64,000 nucleotides of DNA from Polyangiales bacterium (GCA_044229975.1 JBGARZ010000013.1:64001-128000); one strand, 5' to 3'; shown: positions 1-25,550, counted from the stretch's first letter. Translations and numbers: made by a program. The notes: generated by a model from the letters alone, not told the origin.

Positions 1-2
1 AC

Positions 3-995
3 TGGGTGCTCGATCCGTTCTGTGGTCGAGGAACGACTGTCCTAGCCGCGAGGAAACTCGGCCTCCCCGTCGTGGGAGTCGACAGCAATCCCGTCGCTGC
101 CGCGATCGCGGAAGCGAAGCTCGTCAGCGTGTCGGCCGAGCGGATAGTGACCGTTTGCCGGGAGCTCATCGAGGCGGGTTCAAACGACGAGGTCGCACCG
201 CGCGGCCTCTTCTGGAGGCTTTGCTTCACGGATCCCACGCTGCGCGCGCTACTTCGACTGAGAACTGCGCTGTTGCGCGACTGCCGAACCCCAGCCCGAA
301 AGGCGCTTCGCGCAATCCTGCTTGGCAGCCTTCACGGACCTCGGAACAAGGGGTTCCCTTCTTATTTCTCGAATCAGATGCCACGGACCTATGCCGCCAA
401 GCCTGACTATGCGGTCCGTTATTGGCAAAAACACGGATTGAAACCAATCGACGTCGATCTCGTCGACCTCGTCCGACGAAAAGCTGCTCGCTACTATCCG
501 GAGCGACTCGCACCGGCGCGGGGGCGGATTGTGCAAGCCGACAGCAGAACAGGCTCCTTGGAGGGTGATCGCCCGATCAACTGGGTGATCACCTCACCGC
601 CGTACTATGGGATGCGGACCTACGTCCCTGACCAGTGGCTTCGGAGCTGGTTTCTGGGCGGACCGGCCACGGTTGACTACTCCATGGAAGGCCAACTCTT
701 GCACAGGTCCGCCGATGTGTTCACCGACGAACTTGCAACTGTTTGGAACAACGTCGCGCGTCACTGCGCCCCGAGAGCTTCCATGGTGGTGCGATTCGGC
801 GGCATTCAAGACCGCGACGTTGAGCCACGCGATCTGCTCCGGCGGTCCATCGCTCTGTCCGATGTGGGCTGGAGGCTCAAGACGACGAAGTCAGCCGGCT
901 TCGCGACGGCCGGGAAGCGACAGGCGGCGCAGTTTGGCGAGTCATTGAAGAACGGCGTCGAAGAATTTGACTTTCATCTAAGGCTAGAGGGCTGA
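3..995 (+). CDS. Site-specific DNA methyltransferase (probably N4-C/N6-A, motif I before motif IV), 5' truncated by the window edge
   Basis: Motif I LDPFCGRGTT and catalytic VITSPPYYG; frame is open from the window start. Confidence 0.85.
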   Translation, partial: WVLDPFCGRGTTVLAARKLGLPVVGVDSNPVAAAIAEAKLVSVSAERIVTVCRELIEAGSNDEVAPRGLFWRLCFTDPTLRALLRLRTALLRDCRTPARKALRAILLGSLHGPRNKGFPSYFSNQMPRTYAAKPDYAVRYWQKHGLKPIDVDLVDLVRRKAARYYPERLAPARGRIVQADSRTGSLEGDRPINWVITSPPYYGMRTYVPDQWLRSWFLGGPATVDYSMEGQLLHRSADVFTDELATVWNNVARHCAPRASMVVRFGGIQDRDVEPRDLLRRSIALSDVGWRLKTTKSAGFATAGKRQAAQFGESLKNGVEEFDFHLRLEG

Positions 996-997
996 CC

Positions 998-2329
998 ATG
1001 ACAAAGTCCACACCAAAGGGAACTACGTCCAAGGGACCAGCGACTGAGGTGCCGACGACAGGGAAAGCCAAGTCGTGGCTGCTCCCTTGGGAGATTGTGT
1101 CGCCTCCAATGGACACATCTGCCGTCACCGCGTCCGACGAGGACCTGAATGTCCGTTACGTTAAGGGAGAGATCCGAATAGTCACTGAGCAGGCGCGATA
1201 TTCTATCGGTACCGTGCGGCAGATGCTCGCCACCGAGGTTGAAGGCGGCGACGGCGCAGGCGAGAAGCAATATCAACTCGATCCCGAATACCAACGTCGG
1301 CACCGATGGTCCAAACGACAGAAGTCCCGACTCATCGAGTCGTTCCTAATGAATATCCCTGTCCCACCAGTTTTTATTTACGAAAGAGACTTCAACAAAT
1401 ATGAAGTAATGGACGGACGTCAACGCCTGACAGCCATTAACGACTTCTATGCCGGCGCCTTCGCGCTGACCGAACTCGAATACTGGAAGGAACTCGATGG
1501 CCGCAAATACTCTGAACTTCCATCCAAAATCCGCGATGGAATCGACCGAAGGTACCTATCTGCCATCGTTCTACTCAAGGAGTCGGGTGGCAGTGACGCG
1601 GACTCTGGCGTGCGCGAAGCGCGGCTCAAGAAGCTGGTTTTCGCGAGGCTTAACAGTGGAGGCGTCGATCTCGAAGGCCAGGAACTCCGCAACGCCATAT
1701 ATGGAGGCCCGTTAAACAAGCTCTGTTTGGAACTCTCCCGCTACCAACCCTTCCGAGACATGTGGGGCTTTCCATCCATGGATGTTCTCGACGCAGATGA
1801 CACCTCGTCCGATGACGAAGACGACGGAGAAAACTCTCATCCTGTGTCGAGGCGAGCGATCGAGCGGGTGCGCAGGATGGAGGATGTCGAGCTGGTTCTC
1901 GAGTTCTTCGCTTACCGACACATCAACAAATTTCCCGGCGCACTGAATAAAAAGAAGGAGTTTCTCGACTGGTTCATTGGCGCATTCCGATTCTCCGGAC
2001 CGCAACTAGAAGAATATGCGGCGCTGTTCCGCGACACCATCGATCTACTGTCCTCGATTTTGGGGGAGACAGCGTTCCATAGCTGGCGCCAACAACCCAT
2101 GAAGGTCGTCTATGACCCCATGATGTTCGTGGCTAGCCGATACCATTCCCCTGTTGACCGGGACCTACTTGTTCAGGGAAAGAATGTTGTCAGCGCGAAG
2201 GTAAAGGCGATGTTCGATGCCAACAAGGAGATTTTTGGCGGAAGGAAGACCAACGACTCTTACATCGCCAAGCGAAACGATGCTGTCGCCAACGTGTTTG
2301 CGGCGGTGCTCTCTGAACTCCGGCGATGA
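998..2329 (+). CDS. DUF262 (GmrS/ParB-like) domain protein
   Basis: PEYQRRHRW, SRLIESFLMNIPVPPVF, EVMDGRQRLTAI and FARLNSGG motifs. Confidence 0.88.
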   Translation: MTKSTPKGTTSKGPATEVPTTGKAKSWLLPWEIVSPPMDTSAVTASDEDLNVRYVKGEIRIVTEQARYSIGTVRQMLATEVEGGDGAGEKQYQLDPEYQRRHRWSKRQKSRLIESFLMNIPVPPVFIYERDFNKYEVMDGRQRLTAINDFYAGAFALTELEYWKELDGRKYSELPSKIRDGIDRRYLSAIVLLKESGGSDADSGVREARLKKLVFARLNSGGVDLEGQELRNAIYGGPLNKLCLELSRYQPFRDMWGFPSMDVLDADDTSSDDEDDGENSHPVSRRAIERVRRMEDVELVLEFFAYRHINKFPGALNKKKEFLDWFIGAFRFSGPQLEEYAALFRDTIDLLSSILGETAFHSWRQQPMKVVYDPMMFVASRYHSPVDRDLLVQGKNVVSAKVKAMFDANKEIFGGRKTNDSYIAKRNDAVANVFAAVLSELRR

Positions 2330-2341
2330 GAGGGTTGAACG

Positions 2342-3406
2342 ATGCGCGCGACCCTCGAAGACTTCCTGAAGCGAATCTCAGATCTCCTCACGCTCTTGAA
2401 GGACGGCGCGCGGGTGGAAGAGCACCTGAAGTCGCGGAATGATCCGGCCCTCGCCGAGTATCTGCGCGTGCGACGAACCTTCGACTATGCGGGATTGGTG
2501 GTTCTGTTATACGCGCACTTCGAGCAATTCGTGGAAAACCTTGTCTGGTCCTATGCTGACGCTATGTCGAAGAATCTGGTGTATGTGAAGTTGCCAGAAG
2601 GCCTCAAGACGCGGCACCTTGAAATTTCAGTCGACTTACTCGCGAGGAAGCGGATCGGGTCCGGACGTTACGAGAACCTGACCGAACTTGGCGTCGTCCG
2701 GAACCTTTTTGAGTGCGCTCACGACAACCGCCCGGCCAACCTCACACGCGAAGCCTTAGTCCATCACGAGAGAAACCTCCGGGCAGATGTGATCACGGAC
2801 CTCTTTGCGGGCGTTGGTATCAACGACGTCAACGCGCGTGCCTGCAAGGCTGATGCGTTGATGAAGTGGGCAGAAGCCTTGGAGGGTAGCGCCCGACCCA
2901 TTCCTACCTCGCAGGTGGCGGCGAAACTCAATAGGCTCGTTGATCTCCGAAACGACATCGCCCACCGCGGAACGACAGATGACATTACTACGTTTGACAA
3001 CATTACCGAATTGGTGATCTTCGTGGAGGCATACGGACGCGCACTGCACGCAACCGTTGTCACCCACCACCTCCGAACTCTTCTGAAGGATTCGTCACCG
3101 CTCACCATCACTGAGGGACCGTTGAAGGAAGGACGCGTCGTCGTTGTAACGAACCCGCCAGTTGCATTGCGGAAATGGCAAGCCGTATGCGCCTTTGCCG
3201 GCGACCCGAACACGGATGCACGGTGGGGCTACGTCGAGAGCCTCCAGATCAACGACGAAGAAGTCGATGAAGCGCCTCTCGGTGCCGCTGAAGTCGGGCT
3301 CATGCTCACCTTCGAGTGTTTCAAGAACACCGCGCTACATCCTTTGGCCATGCCGGACCCGTTGCTCTGGCCGCCTCCGGCTTCGTCTTCGAATGACGCG
3401 GCCTGA
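2342..3406 (+). CDS. HEPN-family nuclease (RiboL-PSP / MAE_28990-like) with C-terminal beta-barrel
   Basis: LYAHFEQFV helix and RNDIAH (Rx4H) motif; follows the DUF262 gene. Confidence 0.8.
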   Translation: MRATLEDFLKRISDLLTLLKDGARVEEHLKSRNDPALAEYLRVRRTFDYAGLVVLLYAHFEQFVENLVWSYADAMSKNLVYVKLPEGLKTRHLEISVDLLARKRIGSGRYENLTELGVVRNLFECAHDNRPANLTREALVHHERNLRADVITDLFAGVGINDVNARACKADALMKWAEALEGSARPIPTSQVAAKLNRLVDLRNDIAHRGTTDDITTFDNITELVIFVEAYGRALHATVVTHHLRTLLKDSSPLTITEGPLKEGRVVVVTNPPVALRKWQAVCAFAGDPNTDARWGYVESLQINDEEVDEAPLGAAEVGLMLTFECFKNTALHPLAMPDPLLWPPPASSSNDAA

Positions 3407-3597
3407 TTTGTGCTGGTTTGGACTCCGCGATAGGCGTCTTGGTGGCCTGAAGGGGCGGGGGTTTGGCGCCGTCGATCTAGCTTCCCCCGGTCGGTCGCCG
3501 GAGTCGCCACGGTGGAGCGCGCGAGGGACGTGGGCTCGATTGGCGCGATCGTAACGGCGACGCGGCTGCGCGAGGAGCAGGCGCAGCGCGACGCCGT

Positions 3598-4146
3598 TCA
3601 CCCGCTGGTCGTGAGGCTCACGCTGACCACTGCGACGGTCCGGCGCCCCGCGGCGACGGGCGCGATGAGGTCGCCGCGCGCCTGGAGGCAGGCGGTGAAG
3701 CGCGGGCCGGGGCTACGAGCGACGCGCGCGATGGTGACGACTCCGCGGCGGTCGACGGCCAGACTGATCTCCACGCGGGCGGATGACACGGCGGGGTTCA
3801 CCCGGAGCAGCTCCTGCCAGCAGGTGTTGACGATGCGGGAGTCGTTGAACGCCTGAACGACGCGGCCCGTCCGGCGCATCTGCCGCGTTTGTTCGAGGTC
3901 GCAGGGGGAGCCCGGGGGCCAGCGAAAGAAGGGCGCCAACGGACGCCCGTCCATCCTCGGAGAAAACCACGGGTCGATGTCGGGCCCCCTCTCGGGTTGG
4001 GGGAGCGGTTCACCACAGCGTCGTAGTGTCGCCGCATCGGGGCGTGGCTCCGCGCGACGGTGACGGCGTCGCTGCTGCTGAGCGTCGGCGTCACCGCCGA
4101 GGAACGCCAGCGTCAGCCACGCCGCGATCGCTGCGGCCCCGCGCAT
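3598..4146 (-). CDS. Exported protein with TonB-C/AgmX-PglI-like C-terminal domain
   Basis: Signal peptide; CWQELLRVNP...RVEISLAVDRRGVV...FTACL pattern; ATG overlaps the stop of the upstream gene. Confidence 0.55.
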   Translation of the reverse strand: MRGAAAIAAWLTLAFLGGDADAQQQRRRHRRAEPRPDAATLRRCGEPLPQPERGPDIDPWFSPRMDGRPLAPFFRWPPGSPCDLEQTRQMRRTGRVVQAFNDSRIVNTCWQELLRVNPAVSSARVEISLAVDRRGVVTIARVARSPGPRFTACLQARGDLIAPVAAGRRTVAVVSVSLTTSG

Positions 4147-5317: not shown

Positions 5318-6283
5318 ATGACGCGACCGCCAACCACCCGATCACCAACCGCTCCGAGCACCACGAGGCGCTGGCAGCTCCTCGCGATCTGCGTCGGCCT
5401 CTTCTCGTCGTCGTGTGACACCGCCACCCCTTTGCCCGACGCGTCCGCCTTGCTCGATGCATCACGCGATGCGCCGTCGGTCGATGCCCCGAGGCCGCCC
5501 TGCGCTCCGCGCGACAACGTGCTGCTCTGCGGCGCTCCGTTGCTCATCGCACACCGCGGCGGCGGCGCCCTGCGGCCCGAGGAGACCCTCGCGGCGTTCG
5601 CAAACGCCGCCGCGCTCCACGCCGACGTGCTTGAGCTCGACGTGCACTCGACCGCCGACGGCGAGGTCGTGTGCATGCACGACGACACGGTCGACCGCAC
5701 CACCAACGGCACCGGCGCATTGCACGGGCTCACGCTCGCCCAGGTGCGCGCGCTCGACGCCGGCTATCGGTTCACGACCGACCGCGGAGCGACCTTTCCG
5801 TATCGCGGGATGGGCATCACCGTTCCGACGCTGGCCGAGGTGCTCGCGGCACACCCGACCGCGTGGTTCTCGATCGAGATCAAACAGACCGAGCCCAACA
5901 TCGTCGACCGGGTGCTGACGATCGTCGACGCGAACCGCGCCGCAGGCCGCGTCGTGCTCGTGTCGTTCAACGATTCAGTGGTCCGCGAGATCCGGGCGCG
6001 ACGACCCGATGTCGTCACGGGGATGAGCCTCGCGGAGTTCGTCGCCTTCGCGGGGCTGCGGTCGTCGGTCGAAGCCACCTACGCGCCGCCGACGACCATT
6101 TCCCAGCTCCCGGCAGCCAGCGTCAACGCGGAGGTCGTCGCGCGCGCCGGGCGCCTCGGGGTGCGCCTCCACGCGTGGACGGTCAACGATCGCGAGACGA
6201 TGGTGAGGCTCCTCGACCTCGGCGTGCACGGCATCATGACCGACGACCCAGCGCTCCTCGCCGACGTGCTCGCGCACCGCTGA
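5318..6283 (+). CDS. Glycerophosphodiester phosphodiesterase, probable lipoprotein
   Basis: AHRGG, PEETL, ELDVH, MHD, IEIK, WTVND, GIMTDDP; N-terminal SSSC lipobox-like site. Confidence 0.9.
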   Translation: MTRPPTTRSPTAPSTTRRWQLLAICVGLFSSSCDTATPLPDASALLDASRDAPSVDAPRPPCAPRDNVLLCGAPLLIAHRGGGALRPEETLAAFANAAALHADVLELDVHSTADGEVVCMHDDTVDRTTNGTGALHGLTLAQVRALDAGYRFTTDRGATFPYRGMGITVPTLAEVLAAHPTAWFSIEIKQTEPNIVDRVLTIVDANRAAGRVVLVSFNDSVVREIRARRPDVVTGMSLAEFVAFAGLRSSVEATYAPPTTISQLPAASVNAEVVARAGRLGVRLHAWTVNDRETMVRLLDLGVHGIMTDDPALLADVLAHR

Positions 6284-14590: not shown

Positions 14591-14606
14591 TGGCATCTGC
14601 CTTGCG
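14591..14606 (+). promoter_or_regulatory. Sigma54 promoter TGGCAT-CTGCC-TTGCG
   Basis: GG-N10-GC spacing, near-consensus, upstream of a four-gene operon. Confidence 0.7.
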
Positions 14607-14643
14607 CTGGCGCCTCACGATGCCTTCGTTGGAGAGACAGGCG

Positions 14644-14721
14644 ATGACCCAGCCACCCCGAGACGGCCTCCGACCTCCGACCTCCGCGCCTGACCTTCCG
14701 CGCCGATGGGAGGCGTCGTGA
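14644..14721 (+). CDS. Possible 25-aa leader peptide MTQPPRDGLRPPTSAPDLPRRWEAS
   Basis: GGAGAG 8 nt before the ATG; stop overlaps the next GTG. Confidence 0.3.
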   Translation: MTQPPRDGLRPPTSAPDLPRRWEAS

Positions 14722-15818
14722 GCACCTCCATCCGCTGGCTCGAAGGCCCCTCCATCGACGTCCCGTTCTACATGGGCGCGGCCCTCGCGGGCTGGGCGAT
14801 GCTGCTGCTCCACGTCGTCGTCGGCGTGCCCGCGTTTCACCTCTACTGGTTCTGGATCCTCTTCCTCGATGGTCCACACCTCTGGGCCACCATCTCGCGC
14901 ACCTACCTCGATCGCGAAGAGCGTCGCACCCGCGGCCCGCTCTTCATCGGCGCCTTCGCGTGGGCGCTGCTCCCCATCGCCACGCTCGCCTGGGGTCACG
15001 TCACCGGCAACCGCGTGCCCTTCGCGCTCTTCCTCGTCTTCGCGCAGCTCTGGGCGTACTGGCACGTCGTCCGGCAGCACTACGGCTTCCTCTCGCTCTA
15101 CCAGCGCAAGGGCGGTCAACCCGCCGGCGCGCAGAACCCCTTCGACGCCGCCGTCTTCTACGTCGTGATGCTCGCGCCCTTCGCGTCGTGGGCGCTGCGG
15201 CACCCGACCGCGCGCACCAGCCTCGGCCTCGGTCCCGCCCTCGGCACCGTCGAGCGCGGGCTCGTGTGGTCGCTCGGCGCCCTCATCGCCGCGGCCGTCG
15301 TCGCCTACGTCGTGAAGGAGCTGCGCCGCCGCAAGACCATCAACTTCGGCAAGAACCTCTTCCTCGCCTCCTGCGTCCCGCTGCACCTCGCCGTGCTGCT
15401 GCACCCCACGTGGTCGCTCCGCATCGAGCTCGTCGCCCTCGCCGTGATCGTGACCAGCTTCCACAACATCCAGTACAACGCGATCGTGTGGTGCTTCGGA
15501 CGACGCCGCTACGGACGCGACCCGCAGGGCGAGACCTACGGCCTGGCCGCGCGCCTCTTCCGCAACCCCATCGCGTGGTACGCGATCGGCGCCGCGCTCG
15601 CCGTCGTGATGCGATACGCGAGCTGGTCCTTCGACGGCCGCTACTGGCCGCTCACGCCGCACACCCACGCTCGCACCGGGGTCTTCTCGGCCGCCGAGTA
15701 CATCAACGCCCTGTGGTGGGTCGTCGCGATGCACCACTACTATCTCGACCAGAAGATCTGGCGCGTCAGCCGTGACGCCGGGGTGCGCTCCGGGCTCGGC
15801 CTCGCGCCCGCGCCATGA
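14718..15818 (+). CDS. Polytopic membrane protein with four His-containing motifs, probable metalloenzyme
   Basis: DGPHLWAT, WHVVRQHYG, FHNIQY, HHYYLDQKIW; many TM helices; GGAGG RBS. Confidence 0.7.
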   Translation: MSTSIRWLEGPSIDVPFYMGAALAGWAMLLLHVVVGVPAFHLYWFWILFLDGPHLWATISRTYLDREERRTRGPLFIGAFAWALLPIATLAWGHVTGNRVPFALFLVFAQLWAYWHVVRQHYGFLSLYQRKGGQPAGAQNPFDAAVFYVVMLAPFASWALRHPTARTSLGLGPALGTVERGLVWSLGALIAAAVVAYVVKELRRRKTINFGKNLFLASCVPLHLAVLLHPTWSLRIELVALAVIVTSFHNIQYNAIVWCFGRRRYGRDPQGETYGLAARLFRNPIAWYAIGAALAVVMRYASWSFDGRYWPLTPHTHARTGVFSAAEYINALWWVVAMHHYYLDQKIWRVSRDAGVRSGLGLAPAP

Positions 15819-15837
15819 AGACCCCGATGGAGACCCC

Positions 15838-17181
15838 GTGAAGCTGTCCGAGCACCTCAGCGGGTTTCGCGCCGCGAAGTCCCAGAGCCGCGCCCTCGAC
15901 CCGGCGCTCCCGCAGCTCGCGCGGTCGCCCGTCGCCAACCTCTGGACCTTCCGTCAAAACGCCCTCGATCTCCTGCGCGCCGCATCCGCGGTGGGCGACA
16001 CCGTGCGCGTCGACCTGCTCTACAAGCCGACGGTGTTCGTTCAGCACCCCGACGCGGTGCGCGAGATCTTCGAGCAGCCCGACGTGTGGAAGCGCGGCGA
16101 GGGCCTCGTGCCGCTCATCGGCCGCAACGTGCTCACCACCAACGGCGACGAGTGGCTCTTCAACCGCCAGATGGTGCAGCCGTCGTTTCACCCGCAGATG
16201 ACCGCGCGGGCGAGCACCGCGTTCGCGCGTGACGCAGCGGGAGCCATCGAGTCGTGGAAGGCCCACGCGCGCTCGGACGCGCCCTTCGACGTGGCCCGGC
16301 ACGCGGTGCGTCTCTTCGCGAAGTGGGCGACGCCGCAGTTCGGGTTTCAGCTCACCGACGACGAGGCCGACCGCTACCCCGACGCGCTCCTGCGCTTGCA
16401 GCGCTGGGGCTTTCGTCAGGTCGCGGGCGGCACCACGTCGTCGGCCCAGGCCACCGAAGACCTCGCGCTCCTCGACGGCATCATCACCCGCGCGCTCGCC
16501 ACCCCCGCCACGCCGGGCGAGCCGCCGACCTACCTCGAACGCTTCCGCCAGGACCACGACATCGACCGCGCCCGCGTCCGCGACAGCCTGATGCTCGCGC
16601 TCATCGCGTCGGCCGACAATCCGCCCAACGTGTTCGCGTACACGACGTGGCTGCTCGCGCGAAACCCCGCCCAGCAGGACGCAGCGCGCGCCGAGATCGC
16701 CTCTGTCCTCGGTAGCGAAGCGCCCACCGTCGACGCCCTCGACCGCCTGCCGCTGCTCGAACGCGTCGTGCAGGAGTCCATGCGCGTCCTGCCTGCCGTG
16801 TGGTTTCTCGCGCGCATCGCGCAGACCAACACGGTGCTCCGCGGCTACCGCATCCCCGAAGGAACCATGGCCTTCCCCTCCCCCTACTTCGTGCACCGCC
16901 ACGCCTCGACGTGGGACGCGCCGGAGGTGTTCCGCCCCGACCGCTTCCTCCCCGCCGAGGTCGAGAAGCGATCGCGCTACGCCTATCTCCCCTTTGGCTC
17001 AGGGCCCCGCATGTGCGTCGGCGCGCGGCTCTCGACGCTGGAGATCCGCATGCTGCTGGTGCTCTTCCTCCAGCGCTTTCGCGCGCTGCCGGTGAGCGAC
17101 GAGCCGCTGCCCCTCGAAGGCTTCTTCGCGCTGCGCTCTCGCCATGGCGTCCCCGTCCGACTCGCCACGGTAGACGCCTGA
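15838..17181 (+). CDS. Cytochrome P450
   Basis: ESMR (ExxR), FRPDRF, PFGSGPRMCVG; atypical I-helix ASADNPP. Confidence 0.95.
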   Translation: MKLSEHLSGFRAAKSQSRALDPALPQLARSPVANLWTFRQNALDLLRAASAVGDTVRVDLLYKPTVFVQHPDAVREIFEQPDVWKRGEGLVPLIGRNVLTTNGDEWLFNRQMVQPSFHPQMTARASTAFARDAAGAIESWKAHARSDAPFDVARHAVRLFAKWATPQFGFQLTDDEADRYPDALLRLQRWGFRQVAGGTTSSAQATEDLALLDGIITRALATPATPGEPPTYLERFRQDHDIDRARVRDSLMLALIASADNPPNVFAYTTWLLARNPAQQDAARAEIASVLGSEAPTVDALDRLPLLERVVQESMRVLPAVWFLARIAQTNTVLRGYRIPEGTMAFPSPYFVHRHASTWDAPEVFRPDRFLPAEVEKRSRYAYLPFGSGPRMCVGARLSTLEIRMLLVLFLQRFRALPVSDEPLPLEGFFALRSRHGVPVRLATVDA

Positions 17182-19178
17182 TGGACCCGGTCGCCTACGC
17201 CCTGATGCGCTCGGGGTTGTTCTCGTCGCTCGCCCCCGAAGCCTTCGGCGCGCTGCTGCGCGACGTCGAGCGTGTCGAGGTCGCTGGCGGTGACATCGTG
17301 GTGCGCGCGGGCGAGTCGGCCGACGCCTTCTACGTCATCGTCTCCGGCGCGGTGCACGTCTTCATCCACGCCGCCGACGGCGCCGAGGTCGCCCTCGCCG
17401 AGCTTCGCCCCGGCGACCACTTCGGCGAGCAGGCCCTTCTCGCCGGTCGGGTTCGCAACGCGAGCGTGCGCGGCCTCGCACCCCACTCGCTGCTCGCGCG
17501 CGTGGGCGTCGACCAGCTCGACGCGCTCTGCGCCAACGCGCCCGGGTTGCGCCACGAGCTCGAAGCCCTCGGCCAGCGGCAGGTGCAGGAGCAGCTCTCC
17601 CGCGGCACCGACCTCGTGCGCAGCCTCCTCGCGACGCTCGAAGCGCGCGCCGAGACGCTCGACCGCGAAAACGGCGACGTGCTCTTCCGACAGGGCGACC
17701 CCACCGGCGCGGCGTACGTGGTGCTCGCGGGGGCGGTGGAGGTCTTCGAGGAGCGCGAGGGCGCGTCGGTGCGCGTCGCGTCGGCGGGCCCGGGCGTGTG
17801 CGTCGGCGAGCGCGACGAGGTGACCCGGCGCCTGACGGCCGTGGTCGATGGGACGACGCGGTTGCTGAAGGTTCCGCGCGACGCGCTGGCGCTGGCGGCG
17901 GGTTCGGGCAAGGCGCGCGACCACCTCGCGACGCTCCAGAAGGTGTGGGAACTCCCCCAACGCGGCTTCGTCACCCACTACCTGGGCTCGGTCGACGGCG
18001 CGGCCTGTCTCACGCAGCTCTTCCACCTCGCCGACGGGCGGTCGTTCGTGTCGTCGCACGTGATCGGCTCCGAGGCGGTGCGGCTGCAGGCGTCCGCGGG
18101 CACGACGGCGCGCGTGCTCACCACGCCCGACGAGGCGATTCGCGTAGAGGTCGAGTCCGACGGGCGCATCGTCCGCATCGACGCGCAGGCCAGCCGCCCA
18201 TTGCTTGCGGCGGCCTTCGCGCGGGCCATCGAGGGGCGCCCGCTGTTGCCTGCCGAGGAGGCCACGCTGACGCGCACCGGGGCGCTCGCCGCGGACGACG
18301 AGGGCATCGCGTGCGCGTGCATGCGGGTGACGCGAGCGAGGGTGCGGCTGGCCCTCGCGGAGGGCGTCGCCGACCTCGAAGCGCTCAGTCAGCGAACCGG
18401 CTGCGGGATGTCCTGCGGGTCGTGCATCCCGGGGCTGCTGGAGCTGCTCGGCAAGGCGAGCTTCCTGCCCGTCGTCGTCGCACGAAGGGTGGTGCTTGCA
18501 CCGGGCGTGGTGCGGGTCTTCCTGTCGGGTCGAAGCGGCGAGGCGCTGCCCGTGTCGCGACCCGGTCAGCACGTGGTGCTGCGCGCGACGATCAACGGCC
18601 AGGTGGTCGACCGCCCGTACACGCTGTCGGGCGCGCCGGGTGCGCCGTGGGAGGTGACGGTGAAGCGCGAGCCCACCGGGCGCTTCTCGGTGTGGCTGTG
18701 CGACGTGGCCCAGCCCGGCACCGCCCTCGAAGCCTCCGCCCCGCGCGGAACCTACGTCTGGGACGAAGGCCCCGCCCCGGTCGTCTGTTTGACGAGCGGC
18801 ATCGGCGTGACACCCGCGCTCTGCTTCGCGCGCACCGTGATCCGCCGAGGGTTGCCACACCGCGTGCTGATCGACTGGTCGACGCGCCACGAGGCCGACG
18901 CCGCGGTGCTCGGCGAGCTCTCGGAAGCCGCGTGCGCAAACCTCACCATCCGCCCTCGCTACACGTCGCGCGCCGGGCGCATCACGCGCGCCGACGTGCA
19001 CGCGCTGGCGCGGCGCTTTCCGACGGCGGCGTTCTTCCTGTGCGGATCGGAGGGCTACATGACCGCGGTCTCGGAGGCGCTCGCGGCGGCCGGGGTGCCC
19101 GCAGCGCGCGTTCACGTCGAGCACTTCGACGCGGCGGGTGTGGCCGCTGCCGTGGCCGCGCCCGAGGGGGTCGCTTGA
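17181..19178 (+). CDS. Fusion: two cNMP-binding domains + BFD-like [2Fe-2S] + FAD/NAD(P)-binding FNR-type reductase
   Basis: FGEQALL..RNASV; LFRQGD..AYVVLAGAVEV; CAC...CGMSCGSC; RPYTLS, GRFS, SGIGVTP, LCGS, EHF. Confidence 0.88.
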   Translation: MDPVAYALMRSGLFSSLAPEAFGALLRDVERVEVAGGDIVVRAGESADAFYVIVSGAVHVFIHAADGAEVALAELRPGDHFGEQALLAGRVRNASVRGLAPHSLLARVGVDQLDALCANAPGLRHELEALGQRQVQEQLSRGTDLVRSLLATLEARAETLDRENGDVLFRQGDPTGAAYVVLAGAVEVFEEREGASVRVASAGPGVCVGERDEVTRRLTAVVDGTTRLLKVPRDALALAAGSGKARDHLATLQKVWELPQRGFVTHYLGSVDGAACLTQLFHLADGRSFVSSHVIGSEAVRLQASAGTTARVLTTPDEAIRVEVESDGRIVRIDAQASRPLLAAAFARAIEGRPLLPAEEATLTRTGALAADDEGIACACMRVTRARVRLALAEGVADLEALSQRTGCGMSCGSCIPGLLELLGKASFLPVVVARRVVLAPGVVRVFLSGRSGEALPVSRPGQHVVLRATINGQVVDRPYTLSGAPGAPWEVTVKREPTGRFSVWLCDVAQPGTALEASAPRGTYVWDEGPAPVVCLTSGIGVTPALCFARTVIRRGLPHRVLIDWSTRHEADAAVLGELSEAACANLTIRPRYTSRAGRITRADVHALARRFPTAAFFLCGSEGYMTAVSEALAAAGVPAARVHVEHFDAAGVAAAVAAPEGVA

Positions 19179-19897
19179 TTCCGTCATCGCCGCGTCCGCT
19201 CGTGGTGGCGCATCGCGGCGGGCGGTACGCCGACATCGCGGGGGAGCAGACGCTCGCTCACATGGAGCGGGCGATCGCGCTGGGCGCGGACTTCGTCGAG
19301 GTGGACGTGCGGGCGACGTCCGACGACGAGCTCGTGTGCGTGCACGACCCGACGATCGCGGGCGTGACCGTGAGCGCGGTGCCGTACGCCGAGCTGGCAA
19401 GGGCGTGCGAGGCTGCGGGGGTCGTGACGCCGCCGCGGCTCGGTGAGCTGTTGACGTTGTGTCGTGGGCGGGTGCGCGTCGACGTGGAGCTGAAGGTCGC
19501 GGGCACGGAGGCGGGCGTGCTCGCCGTGGCGAAGCGCGCGGGGCCGCTCGATGGGGTGGTGTTCAAGTGCTTTCAGGACGCCGTGGTGCGCGAGCTGAAG
19601 CGGCTCGAACCGTCGTGCGTGGCGGGGCTGCTGCTGGGCGTGCAGCGACCGAAGCGCGGCGCGTGGACGCGGTTGGGTGAGATCTTCCCCGAGTGGCGGC
19701 TGCGGGCGTGCCGCGCGGACTTCGTGTGCCCCAACCATCGGCTGCTACGGGCTGGCTTCGCCTGGCGGATGCGCTTGCAGGGCTATCCCGTGCTGGTGTG
19801 GACGGTGAACGATCGGGCGCAGCTCACGGCACTGGGCGCGGTGGTCGACGGGCTCATCACCGACGAGGTCGAGGTGTGCCTGGCGGGTCGGCGTTGA
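19175..19897 (+). CDS. Glycerophosphodiester phosphodiesterase family protein (cytoplasmic)
   Basis: AHRGG, EVDVR, VHD, VELK, WTVND, GLITD; TTG overlaps the previous stop. Confidence 0.88.
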   Translation: MIPSSPRPLVVAHRGGRYADIAGEQTLAHMERAIALGADFVEVDVRATSDDELVCVHDPTIAGVTVSAVPYAELARACEAAGVVTPPRLGELLTLCRGRVRVDVELKVAGTEAGVLAVAKRAGPLDGVVFKCFQDAVVRELKRLEPSCVAGLLLGVQRPKRGAWTRLGEIFPEWRLRACRADFVCPNHRLLRAGFAWRMRLQGYPVLVWTVNDRAQLTALGAVVDGLITDEVEVCLAGRR

Positions 19898-23585: not shown

Positions 23586-25550
23586 TCAGTGCGCGAGCCC
23601 CATGTCCGCGTGTGACGTCGCCGCCGGGGCCGCCGACACGGGCATCTCCGCCGCCCGGAACCCCGGCCGCCGCACCCTCACCCGGTAGTTGCCGCGGTCG
23701 ATGTTGCTGAAGCGGTACGCCCCCGACTCGGTGCTCTGCGTGCGCTGCACCACGCGCCCCGCGTGGTCGACCAGCTCGACCTCCGCGTTGGCCGCGCCGC
23801 CCGCGCCCTCCGCGTTGAGCTGCCCCTGCACCTGCGCGTAGTTGGCCTGCTGCGCTTCTGGGGTGTCGTGCACGAAGGGCAGCTCCACGCTCTGGAGCGC
23901 CCGCCCCGAACCATCGACGAAGGCCACCGTCGCCACGTACCTCCCCGCAGGCGCGGGGTCGCCTTGCGTGGGGCGGCCGTTCCAGGTGACGCGCACGGGA
24001 CCCTGCGCCGACGCCTCGTCGTGCTGCCAGATGGCCCGCCCCTCCGGCGTCCGCACCGTCACCCGCACCGTCCCCGCCACCTCGCGCGGCGCCACGTTGC
24101 GCAGCGAGAACACCGTGTTGCCCTCTGTCCACCGTGTCCCCGGCGTCACGAGGTAGTACTGCCCGGTGTAAAGCTCCACCCGTCGGCGCGCCTGCTGGCC
24201 GCGATCGTTGGTCGCCACCACGTCGATGGTGTGCACGCCCGCCGGGAGCCCCGCGAGGTCGACGGTCTGCGCGAGCGCCGCCCCGCACGCCCGGCCCACC
24301 GGGTTGTCGTCGAGGAGCATCTCCACCTGCCTCACTCCGGCGCCGTTGTTGTCCACCGCGCGCGCCCGCACCGTGGGGTTGCCGCTGACGTGCTCGCCGT
24401 CTCGCAACCCGTCCAGCGCGAGCGACATGACGTCGACGCTCACCAGCCCAAAGACCGCCCACATCGCCTCGGCCTTCCCTGCCCCACCGTGCGACCAGCC
24501 GCCGTCTTCCTGCTGGTGCGTGACCAGCCAGCGCGTCCCGCGCGCCACGGTCGCGTCGTCGTCGCTCGCGCCGAGCGAGCGCAGCGCGTGCAGCGTCTGA
24601 CCCGTCGCGAAGGCGTTGGTGTCGCCCGTGCGCTGGTAGCTCCAGCCGCCATCCTCCGCCTGCCGCTCGCGCAGCCGTGAGGCCAGCGCCACGAGGGTCG
24701 CCTCGCTCGGTTGGGCGCCCGCTTCGAGGAGACCCATGACGGCGTAGTTGAGGTCGACGGTCCCCGCGTCGGGGAGGTCGGTGAGTCGGCGGGCCTGCGC
24801 CTGGAGCCACGCCTCGGCCTCGCGCGTCGGGCCGAGCCAGCGCTCGTCGGCGCTGCGCGAGTACGCCTGGTGCCACGTCTGGAGCGCCTGCGTCGTGGCC
24901 TGCAACGGGCCCTGCACCACCGGGAAGCGGGTGTCGTCGTTGCGAACCGATCCGTCGGGGTTCTGGTAGGCGACGAGCTGCTGGGCGACGGCGAGGAGGT
25001 CGTCTCGCAGGGCGCCGTCCTCGGTGCGGTCGTAGCGCGCGAAGGCCGCGCCGCCGAAGGCCCGCGACGTAGCGGGCATCCCGCTGCCACCAACACTGAG
25101 GCCGCCCGTGTTGCGGTGGCCGCCGCGGATCTCCGTGAGACCGCGCAGCACCTCGCGAAACTCGGGCTCGCTGACGTCGTAGCGGTGCTCGCGCCCGACC
25201 GTGAGCGCCTCGAAGGTGACGGCCTGAACGTGGCAGCCGTAGCAGTTGTGCTGCGTCTGCCACGCCACCGCCTCGCGCGACACGAAGCCGAGGCCGCGTT
25301 GGGCCGCGCGGCGTGCGTCGGGGTCGCCGTGGGCCGCGTTGGGCGAGGCGACGCGGGCGTTGCGGGAGGGCTCGCAGGTGGGCAGGTCGACGTGCACGAC
25401 GGCGCGGTGCCCAGGGGCTGCGACGTCACGCGCGGGCTCGACGGCAGCGCGTCGCGAGGCGATGCCCCCGGCGGTGGCGCACCCGGCGAGGAGCGCGATG
25501 ACGACGAGGTTGCCCGGGTGGCGGGCGCGAGCGCGGTTGGACGAGTTCAT
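23586..25550 (-). CDS. Lipoprotein: prenyltransferase/squalene-cyclase-repeat barrel with CxxCH + Ig-like + FlgD-like + carboxypeptidase-regulatory-like domains
   Basis: LAGC; CYGCH; QNPDGS, QAEDGGW, QQEDGGW; VTWNGR...PAGRY; GAYRF..GNYRVRV..PGF. Confidence 0.8.
   Translation of the reverse strand: MNSSNRARARHPGNLVVIALLAGCATAGGIASRRAAVEPARDVAAPGHRAVVHVDLPTCEPSRNARVASPNAAHGDPDARRAAQRGLGFVSREAVAWQTQHNCYGCHVQAVTFEALTVGREHRYDVSEPEFREVLRGLTEIRGGHRNTGGLSVGGSGMPATSRAFGGAAFARYDRTEDGALRDDLLAVAQQLVAYQNPDGSVRNDDTRFPVVQGPLQATTQALQTWHQAYSRSADERWLGPTREAEAWLQAQARRLTDLPDAGTVDLNYAVMGLLEAGAQPSEATLVALASRLRERQAEDGGWSYQRTGDTNAFATGQTLHALRSLGASDDDATVARGTRWLVTHQQEDGGWSHGGAGKAEAMWAVFGLVSVDVMSLALDGLRDGEHVSGNPTVRARAVDNNGAGVRQVEMLLDDNPVGRACGAALAQTVDLAGLPAGVHTIDVVATNDRGQQARRRVELYTGQYYLVTPGTRWTEGNTVFSLRNVAPREVAGTVRVTVRTPEGRAIWQHDEASAQGPVRVTWNGRPTQGDPAPAGRYVATVAFVDGSGRALQSVELPFVHDTPEAQQANYAQVQGQLNAEGAGGAANAEVELVDHAGRVVQRTQSTESGAYRFSNIDRGNYRVRVRRPGFRAAEMPVSAAPAATSHADMGLAH

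Follow-up and report, generated by a model that had tools for sequence, protein, structure and literature searches.

The self-sufficient nitric oxide synthases (NOS) scNOS, from Sorangium cellulosum, and SiliNOS, from Silicibacter TrichCH4B, feed a heme-thiolate oxygenase from a reductase at the N-terminus, which holds sites for [2Fe-2S], FAD and NAD(P)H (PMC3701330, PMC4436077); in passages of these two papers no cyclic-nucleotide (cNMP) or EF-hand sensor is mentioned, and the inputs stimulating scNOS are there described as unknown (PMC4436077). Here we analysed a locus of a Polyangiales bacterium (genome of 10.0 Mb, GC-rich) lying in a 64,000-nucleotide stretch of DNA (GCA_044229975.1, JBGARZ010000013.1:64001-128000; hereafter, the window), in which four open reading frames (ORFs) on the same strand (+) code for a membrane protein (g1), a cytochrome P450 (g2), a reductase carrying tandem cyclic-nucleotide-binding (CNB) domains (g3) and a glycerophosphodiester phosphodiesterase (GDPD)-family protein (g4). 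A previous sequence-only reading had taken the four genes as one new pathway. As judged from the comparison of loci, the conserved unit is a cassette of three genes rather than four, namely P450 and reductase, usually with the GDPD.

Database NOS fusions with the layout of scNOS and SiliNOS match g3 at 26-37% over long stretches; the NOS enzymes are fused, whereas g3 is free-standing, partnered with a P450 gene and equipped with tandem cNMP domains. In GcoAB (GcoB, PDB 5OGX) and CYP116B46 (6LAA), a P450 is served by a single chain that couples a [2Fe-2S] domain to a flavin/NAD(P)H module. Both have plant-type ferredoxin domains and no known sensor domain, while g3 has a BFD-type cluster and two CNB domains, and g2 belongs to an unrelated P450 family. 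The flavin module of g3 matches 5OGX at Z 23.2 (rmsd 2.7, 221 aligned) and 6LAA at Z 22.9 (rmsd 2.4, 217 aligned), and both the architecture and the predicted model are compatible with a two-component P450 of the GcoAB type. The tandem CNB fold and a canonical CNB-A cassette are shared with the regulatory subunits of PKA and PKG, and a passage on the 'Bact_Pyrredox' family gives a precedent for a CNB pair on a bacterial oxidoreductase (PMC2246266). In these proteins, however, the output is a kinase or a disulfide oxidoreductase, whereas in g3 it would be an FNR/BFD donor for an oxygenase, and CNB-B is decayed. The cassette would work like the GcoAB- and scNOS-type single-chain reductase systems without belonging to either; a dedicated P450 and a GDPD are what this locus adds to the known reductase module.

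Conservation and Distribution of the Cassette

Reductase loci were collected from metagenomes and from a 401-genome sample of the phylum, and 65 of them were examined. Full-length relatives of g3, at 39.8-92.7% identity, were present in seven loci besides this one, and in all seven a P450 of the g2 family was found directly upstream, with stop and start codons within a few nucleotides; none of the other 58 loci had a g2-family P450, but only P450 matches at 22-30%. An orthologous GDPD (51-88%) follows the reductase directly in four of the seven, and the identities of P450, reductase and GDPD to those of the window run in step (92/93/88, 53/54/52, 51/56/51 and 55/53/58, respectively). Furthermore, seven of the 23 members of the P450 family could be matched, indirectly, to the source record of a reductase hit. 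In the window itself, the P450 and reductase genes overlap by 1 nt (TGATG) and the reductase and GDPD genes by 4 nt (TTGA).

The membrane gene is absent from this linkage. With a profile of 121 g1 relatives, no g1 was found in the five other cassettes with visible upstream DNA (4.5-6.7 kb shown; the remaining two loci start inside the P450), and cassette genes were found in none of eight g1 loci, one of them being cut off within g1 and another reaching about 1 kb beyond it. As for three other cassette genomes, one is without g1, one has a distant relative only and one carries it on another contig. On these grounds four-gene conservation was rejected, and both g1 and the promoter would be local additions to a P450-reductase(-GDPD) unit. 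The layout described by the sequence-only reading, four genes with overlapping or near-overlapping codons behind a sigma54-like site, is real in this genome and not conserved as such; the synteny it expected holds throughout for P450 and reductase, in part for the GDPD and not for g1.

Three other genomes of the 400-genome phylum sample carry the cassette, and none of 400 other genomes of the window's order does. One cassette genome is known in each of three other orders (3, 154 and 13 genomes searched), where nothing was detected beyond the cassettes already found, the largest searches having scored only 3-11 candidates per genome. This rare and scattered distribution suggests horizontal movement, as far as sequence comparison can tell.

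The Reductase and Its Fused Relatives

Pfam assigned a p450 domain to g2, two cNMP domains, Fer2_BFD and FAD_binding_6 to g3, and GDPD to g4. In g3, [2Fe-2S], FAD and NAD(P)H sites are joined in one chain, homologous to the reductases of NOS fusions (the comparison was with database fusions and not with the scNOS sequence itself). Cluster cysteines, flavin and nucleotide motifs are retained in 30-32 of the 32 rows of the reductase subfamily, which include a few near-duplicates and are mostly 40-65% identical. No NO_synthase domain was detected in g3 by Pfam, hence it is not a self-sufficient NOS. The linker (residues 256-370) is beta-rich and had no match in the Atlas, and only one out of ten proteins scanned gave a match, below threshold, with Rubredoxin_C, which is a lead at most. 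One near-identical reductase copy (P0125) is out of frame over approximately residues 260-340, probably by assembly error.

Distant relatives (about 25-39%) are fused C-terminally to other oxygenases or redox domains. Scanning of 32 ORFs from the loci gave 11 P450 fusions and 7 NOS fusions, and among 40 representatives, chosen mostly by length from the best 150 matches, the partner was a P450 in 12, NOS in 7, a multiheme cytochrome in 3, and a desaturase and a nitrite/sulfite reductase in one each; many other matches stand alone, 83 of 142 being no longer than 760 aa. In four of the seven NOS fusions (L057:7062-10445, L065:6933-10322, L133:7810-11349 and L136:1577-4813) pairs of EF-hands occupy the place where the others have cNMP domains, and might serve scNOS-type enzymes as an integral calcium switch. 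In a FastTree phylogeny, the cassette clade is nested in the branch containing all 22 P450-fused reductases. The cNMP-fused architecture of the sequence-only reading was confirmed; what it had missed is that the module is of the Sorangium NOS type and widely fused to oxygenases.

The relatives include self-sufficient proteins of about 1250-1340 aa with the order cNMP x2-BFD-FNR-P450 (L034-L040, L052, L054, L127, P0248 and others), a class for which no paper was found in a literature search restricted to titles; one of these proteins (P0270) has an additional N-terminal sulfotransferase. In others (L041, L043, L047-L049, L066, L068 and L071) the reductase ends with a hydrophobic, His-containing tail of about 170 aa without Pfam match, possibly a heme-b membrane domain.

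The Putative Cyclic-Nucleotide Sensor

In canonical CNB domains, cAMP binding and allosteric coupling have been ascribed to residues that include the Arg of the phosphate-binding cassette and a partner Gly (PMC2246266). This pattern (G-E...R-x-A plus the partner Gly) is complete in CNB-A, where Gly44 is found in 31 of the 32 subfamily members, and incomplete in CNB-B. The CNB-B motif passes in 8 of 10 P450 fusions vs. 2 of 32 members of the cassette subfamily. In 21 of 32 members the CNB-A Arg is followed by Thr or Ser, which is compatible with cGMP, and in g3 by Asn. Class III cyclase domains were found in all four cassette genomes tested.

A sensor role is argued by the selective retention of one pocket and by the EF-hands in the same position elsewhere, and caution is called for because CNB-B has decayed and sensor-less members exist. 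On balance, gating of the reductase by a cyclic nucleotide bound at CNB-A appears to us about evenly poised. The electron supply switched by a cyclic nucleotide, as earlier proposed, is backed by an intact pocket, while the switching itself is deduced from it.

The P450 and Its Predicted Pairing With the Reductase

The g2 product scored 191 bits against Pfam p450 (cut-off 22.8) and belongs to a small family of 23 members at 43-100% identity, with the next matches at about 30% across the full length. The heme Cys (C393) and the ExxR residues E313 and R316 are invariant, and nothing is unusual in the proximal motifs. The family is indeed atypical, as previously noted, in the I-helix: all 23 members read AxxDNPPN where the best PDB match, once aligned, has AGHETTAT, so that the acid (D260) is retained, Thr is replaced by Asn261 followed by two prolines, and the canonical acid-alcohol pair (D/E-T/S) is missing. 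Loss of the I-helix Thr normally uncouples the P450 cycle (PMC12937128), and we infer that oxygen activation in g2 could be substrate-assisted.

To model the pairing, the P450 was combined with reductase residues 256-652. The complex scored 0.81 against 0.00 for the best of three controls, a mark that 116 of 157 solved pairs attain, as do 2 of 215 mismatched ones; contacts agreed by at least 98% between runs, with a partner pLDDT of at least 79. The predicted interface involves P450 residues 111-121 and 224-241 and reductase residues 528-533, 556-561, 586-587 and 611-616; the P450 sequence 228-241 is specific to the g2 family. On the reductase side, interface conservation vs. the rest of the domain was 0.83 vs. 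0.68 in the cassette subfamily and 0.32 vs. 0.47 in 165 other rows. The model supports a predicted binding of the two proteins. Because of the linkage in seven out of seven loci, the close stop and start codons and the complex model, the view that P450 and cNMP-fused reductase are partners, already put forward by the sequence-only reading, is supported.

A separate stop codon divides the P450 and reductase genes in all eight loci, therefore g2 is not a class VII or self-sufficient P450. It was also rejected as half of a split P450-reductase fusion: in a FastTree phylogeny the P450s of the fusions branch as a clade apart, at 15-21% identity, and mostly carry the canonical HETT motif. Other candidate functions were discarded too. 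A RiPP-modifying, biarylitide-like P450 was rejected, as no shared short ATG-started ORF was found within 300 nt upstream in six loci; the ApyO family match reached 108 bits vs. a cut-off of 525. A sterol substrate was rejected since an oxidosqualene-cyclase-like full match, below cut-off, was found in only one of four cassette genomes and a CYP51 neighbour in one locus. In the latter (L125:10398-11639), the CYP51-like P450 follows the reductase of a cassette, and no oxidosqualene cyclase was found in that genome.

The GDPD

Pfam GDPD recognised g4 at 80.9 bits (cut-off 23.6), and H13, E42, D44, H57 and the Glu of the ELK motif are retained in all five cassette copies; in this family they correspond to the catalytic His pair and the metal-binding Glu/Asp. 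The fold and the positions of the catalytic His, Glu and Asp are shared with UgpQ-like GDPDs, with the T. tengcongensis structure 2PZ0 and with 7YM0, one of the GDPD-fold relatives deposited as lysoplasmalogenase. Compared with UgpQ-like GDPDs, g4 remains below the cut-off of the NCBIfam equivalog (52 vs. 264 bits) and makes up, with its cassette orthologs, a group apart. An Arg-rich segment common to these orthologs (in g4 residues 150-205, with 11 basic and 3 acidic) could, from its composition, bind membranes. A lipid substrate common to GDPD and P450 is the best guess, though less likely than not: of the lipid oxidation formerly proposed, with the GDPD releasing the substrate, the orthologous GDPD of four out of seven loci stands and the substrate is a speculative lead. 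No relevant title on a P450-GDPD pair was retrieved by the literature search.

Proposed Mechanism and Alternatives

The reading to which we incline, with slightly better than balanced confidence, is a two-component monooxygenase made of the P450 and the cNMP-BFD-FAD/NAD(P)H reductase, tuned by cAMP or cGMP and acting on a lipid-like substrate with the GDPD. Electrons would pass from NAD(P)H to FAD, to [2Fe-2S] and to heme, as known for the family and with all cofactor ligands kept. In the model, the P450 would dock on the NAD(P)H domain of the reductase through a patch of its own, a non-covalent stand-in for the covalent fusions of the relatives that would leave the BFD domain free to shuttle. 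A cyclic nucleotide at CNB-A may shift the adjoining linker/BFD unit and so change electron flow, with CNB-B as a degenerate spacer. With Asn in place of Thr, the substrate or the Asn itself might supply the hydrogen bond for oxygen activation. The most speculative step, and a doubtful one, is that the substrate would be a (lyso)glycerophospholipid or an ether lipid whose head group the GDPD removes before or after oxidation. The membrane protein and the sigma54 promoter would be local upstream context in this lineage.

Several observations weigh against this scheme. Branch support deep in the reductase tree is weak (43-78). The excess of conservation on the P450 side of the interface is small (0.73 vs. 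0.65), and the predicted contact lies on the NAD(P)H domain and not on the BFD domain that would reduce the heme. The complex model used the same alignments as the conservation check, and its pass may partly reflect likeness to a known structure, CYP116B46 (6LAA). CNB-B is degenerate in 30 of 32 rows, and some members (L068, L071) have no cNMP domain match at all, showing that the reductase module can exist without the sensor. Cyclases are common in these genomes and give little weight, and the GDPD is absent from three of the seven cassettes.

The decayed CNB-B and the sensor-less members, together with the lack of a cyclase gene beside the annotated cassette loci, speak for a constitutive electron supply in which the cNMP domains are structural or a decaying remnant. 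We regard this as rather unlikely, though a serious contender: G82, E83, R92 and A94 are kept throughout sequences of mostly 40-65% identity while the twin site decayed, and EF-hands take the same position in some NOS fusions. Much less probable is a four-gene circuit, with the membrane enzyme in the same pathway and the GDPD destroying the cyclic nucleotide. In this genome one promoter-like site and tight junctions do join the genes, g1 looks like a redox metalloenzyme, and a different GDPD precedes a NOS-fused reductase in three near-identical loci; that GDPD is, however, only about 30% identical and of a different subfamily, and the cassette loci, g1 loci and genomes described above keep g1 and the cassette apart. 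That the GDPD degrades the signal, as the sequence-only reading had also considered, is unsupported: the GDPD is absent from three cassettes, and no paper on cAMP or cGMP hydrolysis by a GDPD was found among the titles searched. Known cNMP phosphodiesterases have metallophosphoesterase, HD or MBL folds, while the fold of g4 is that of GDPD.

Alternatively, g2 could be an electron-free, peroxide-using isomerase or peroxygenase, and the reductase would serve another partner. An Asn is present in the I-helix of CYP74- and CYP8-type enzymes. In the g2 family the Thr that normal P450s need for coupling (PMC12937128) is gone in all 23 members; but a reductase follows the P450 in each locus, the catalytic acid is kept and the complex model joins the two proteins, which makes this reading quite improbable. 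Least probable of all is nitric-oxide chemistry by g2, which would either nitrate as TxtE does or remove NO. Fusions to NOS are frequent in the reductase family and the TxtE I-helix has a proline, yet no NOS oxygenase was found in the genome (93% complete), nor any NOS match in the seven cassette loci, and the TxtE family match was 27 bits vs. a cut-off of 500.

Beyond the two-component monooxygenase, a wider reading, to which we give somewhat less than an even chance, is that of a modular donor switched by second messengers, with a cNMP pair or EF-hands on BFD-FNR, plugged into P450s, NOS, desaturases and cytochromes; here it would consist of a gated reductase and a Thr-less P450, with docking patches of their own. 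There is a real chance that this is a second-messenger-gated P450. No paper on a P450 with a cyclic-nucleotide-gated electron supply was found in a literature search covering few subscription papers, nor one on cNMP domains with a P450 fusion or a bacterial NOS, and the original scNOS description may already note sensors. If CNB-A gates electron flow, it would be a bacterial allosteric counterpart to the Ca/calmodulin control of animal NOS, and a sensor position occupied by cNMP domains or EF-hands bears on the activation of scNOS-type enzymes, left open in the passage cited (PMC4436077). With the two partners separate, assays of gating need only a soluble protein of 665 aa; a P450 donor that can be switched would also find use in biocatalysis, and the invariant DNPPN points to unusual oxygen activation. 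The features of the locus are collected in Table 1.

Table 1. Coordinates of genes, domains and motifs at the locus, counted from the first letter of the window.
Feature	Position	Strand	Basis or remark
sigma54 -24/-12 promoter-like site, TGGCATCTGCCTTGC	14591..14605	+	115 nt before g1; local to this locus
g1, 370-aa polytopic membrane protein of an unnamed family	14706..15818	+	probable metal site; local passenger
8-codon ORF overlapping g1 stop and P450 start	15815..15841	+	may couple translation
g2, cytochrome P450 of a small separate family	15838..17181	+	Pfam p450
P450 residues 224-241 (PPxYLERxRQDH), predicted reductase-docking patch	16507..16560	+	family-specific
I-helix DNPPN, residues 260-264, replacing the usual ETT	16615..16629	+	23/23
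heme-ligating Cys393 in PFGxGPRxC	17014..17016	+	
g3, 665-aa reductase: CNB-A, CNB-B, linker, BFD [2Fe-2S], FAD and NAD(P)H domains	17181..19178	+	
intact phosphate-binding cassette of CNB-A	17421..17468	+	G82, E83, R92, A94 in 32/32
shortened, degenerate phosphate-binding cassette of CNB-B	17799..17846	+	motif intact in 2/32
BFD-type [2Fe-2S] domain	18312..18425	+	C378/C380/C412/C415 in 32/32
FNR-like FAD/NAD(P)H module	18462..19130	+	residues 528-533, 556-561, 611-616 predicted P450 contacts
g4, GDPD-family phosphodiesterase	19175..19897	+	catalytic motif residues kept; Arg-rich segment

Membrane Protein, Promoter-Like Site and Neighbouring Genes

The g1 family is large (276 matches) and corresponds to no Pfam or NCBIfam family; only unnamed Atlas clusters and no PDB sequence were matched. 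Its invariant residues (H58, H120, Q124, H125, H253, Q256, H344 and D348) form a probable metal site, making a membrane metalloenzyme plausible; the His-rich membrane protein of the sequence-only reading is thus found, its enzymatic nature being read from the invariant His, Asp and Gln. The model is all-helical and confident (pLDDT 94), with no Foldseek match at E 0.001, and the best structural Z (6.8) was with rhodopsin-like bundles, at background level. No profile of His-box di-iron enzymes (desaturase, AlkB, fatty-acid hydroxylase) or of Brp/Blh was matched by 107 g1 members. From its occurrence, g1 looks like a local passenger outside the conserved cassette. The closest ortholog (76%; L001:6024-10433) lies between a Lgt-family gene and an MFS transporter plus alpha/beta hydrolase, and distant family members adjoin a flavin amine-oxidase-family gene in 7 of the 19 loci listed (L015, L019, L022, L024, L025, L027 and L028), a possible redox partner for the g1 family. 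The 19-nt gap between g1 and the P450 gene is bridged by the 8-codon ORF, which may couple the translation of the two; no counterpart was found at the other cassette loci.

The sigma54 pattern alone is not beyond chance, since 14 of 100 shuffles of the sequence gave at least one match, and genome-wide 12 sites were counted vs. 12, 7, 4 and 5 for controls with wrong spacing. Placement does distinguish them: 8 of the 12 correctly spaced sites, including that of the window, lie between genes and ahead of one on the same strand vs. 2 of 28 wrongly spaced ones, as called by a rough gene caller made for this analysis. Because of this placement, and since sigma54 itself is encoded in the genome, the site is probably a real promoter, on sequence grounds. 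As a general feature of the cassette sigma54 control was rejected, no strict site occurring within 500 nt upstream of the P450 genes of five other cassettes. A divergent sigma54-activator gene is present at one cassette locus (L032).

Elsewhere in the window, a second GDPD gene (5540-6280), 9 kb upstream, is only 31% identical to g4, and a further P450 gene (29070-30389) is about 29% identical to g2 across the C-terminal part. A 654-aa protein encoded on the opposite strand (23589-25550, -) has squalene-cyclase-like repeats with Ig-like and carboxypeptidase-regulatory domains. Finally, the GC content of positions 1-4000, where two ORFs (406 and 354 aa) lie, is 58-61% vs. about 71% elsewhere, and this part may be an acquired island.

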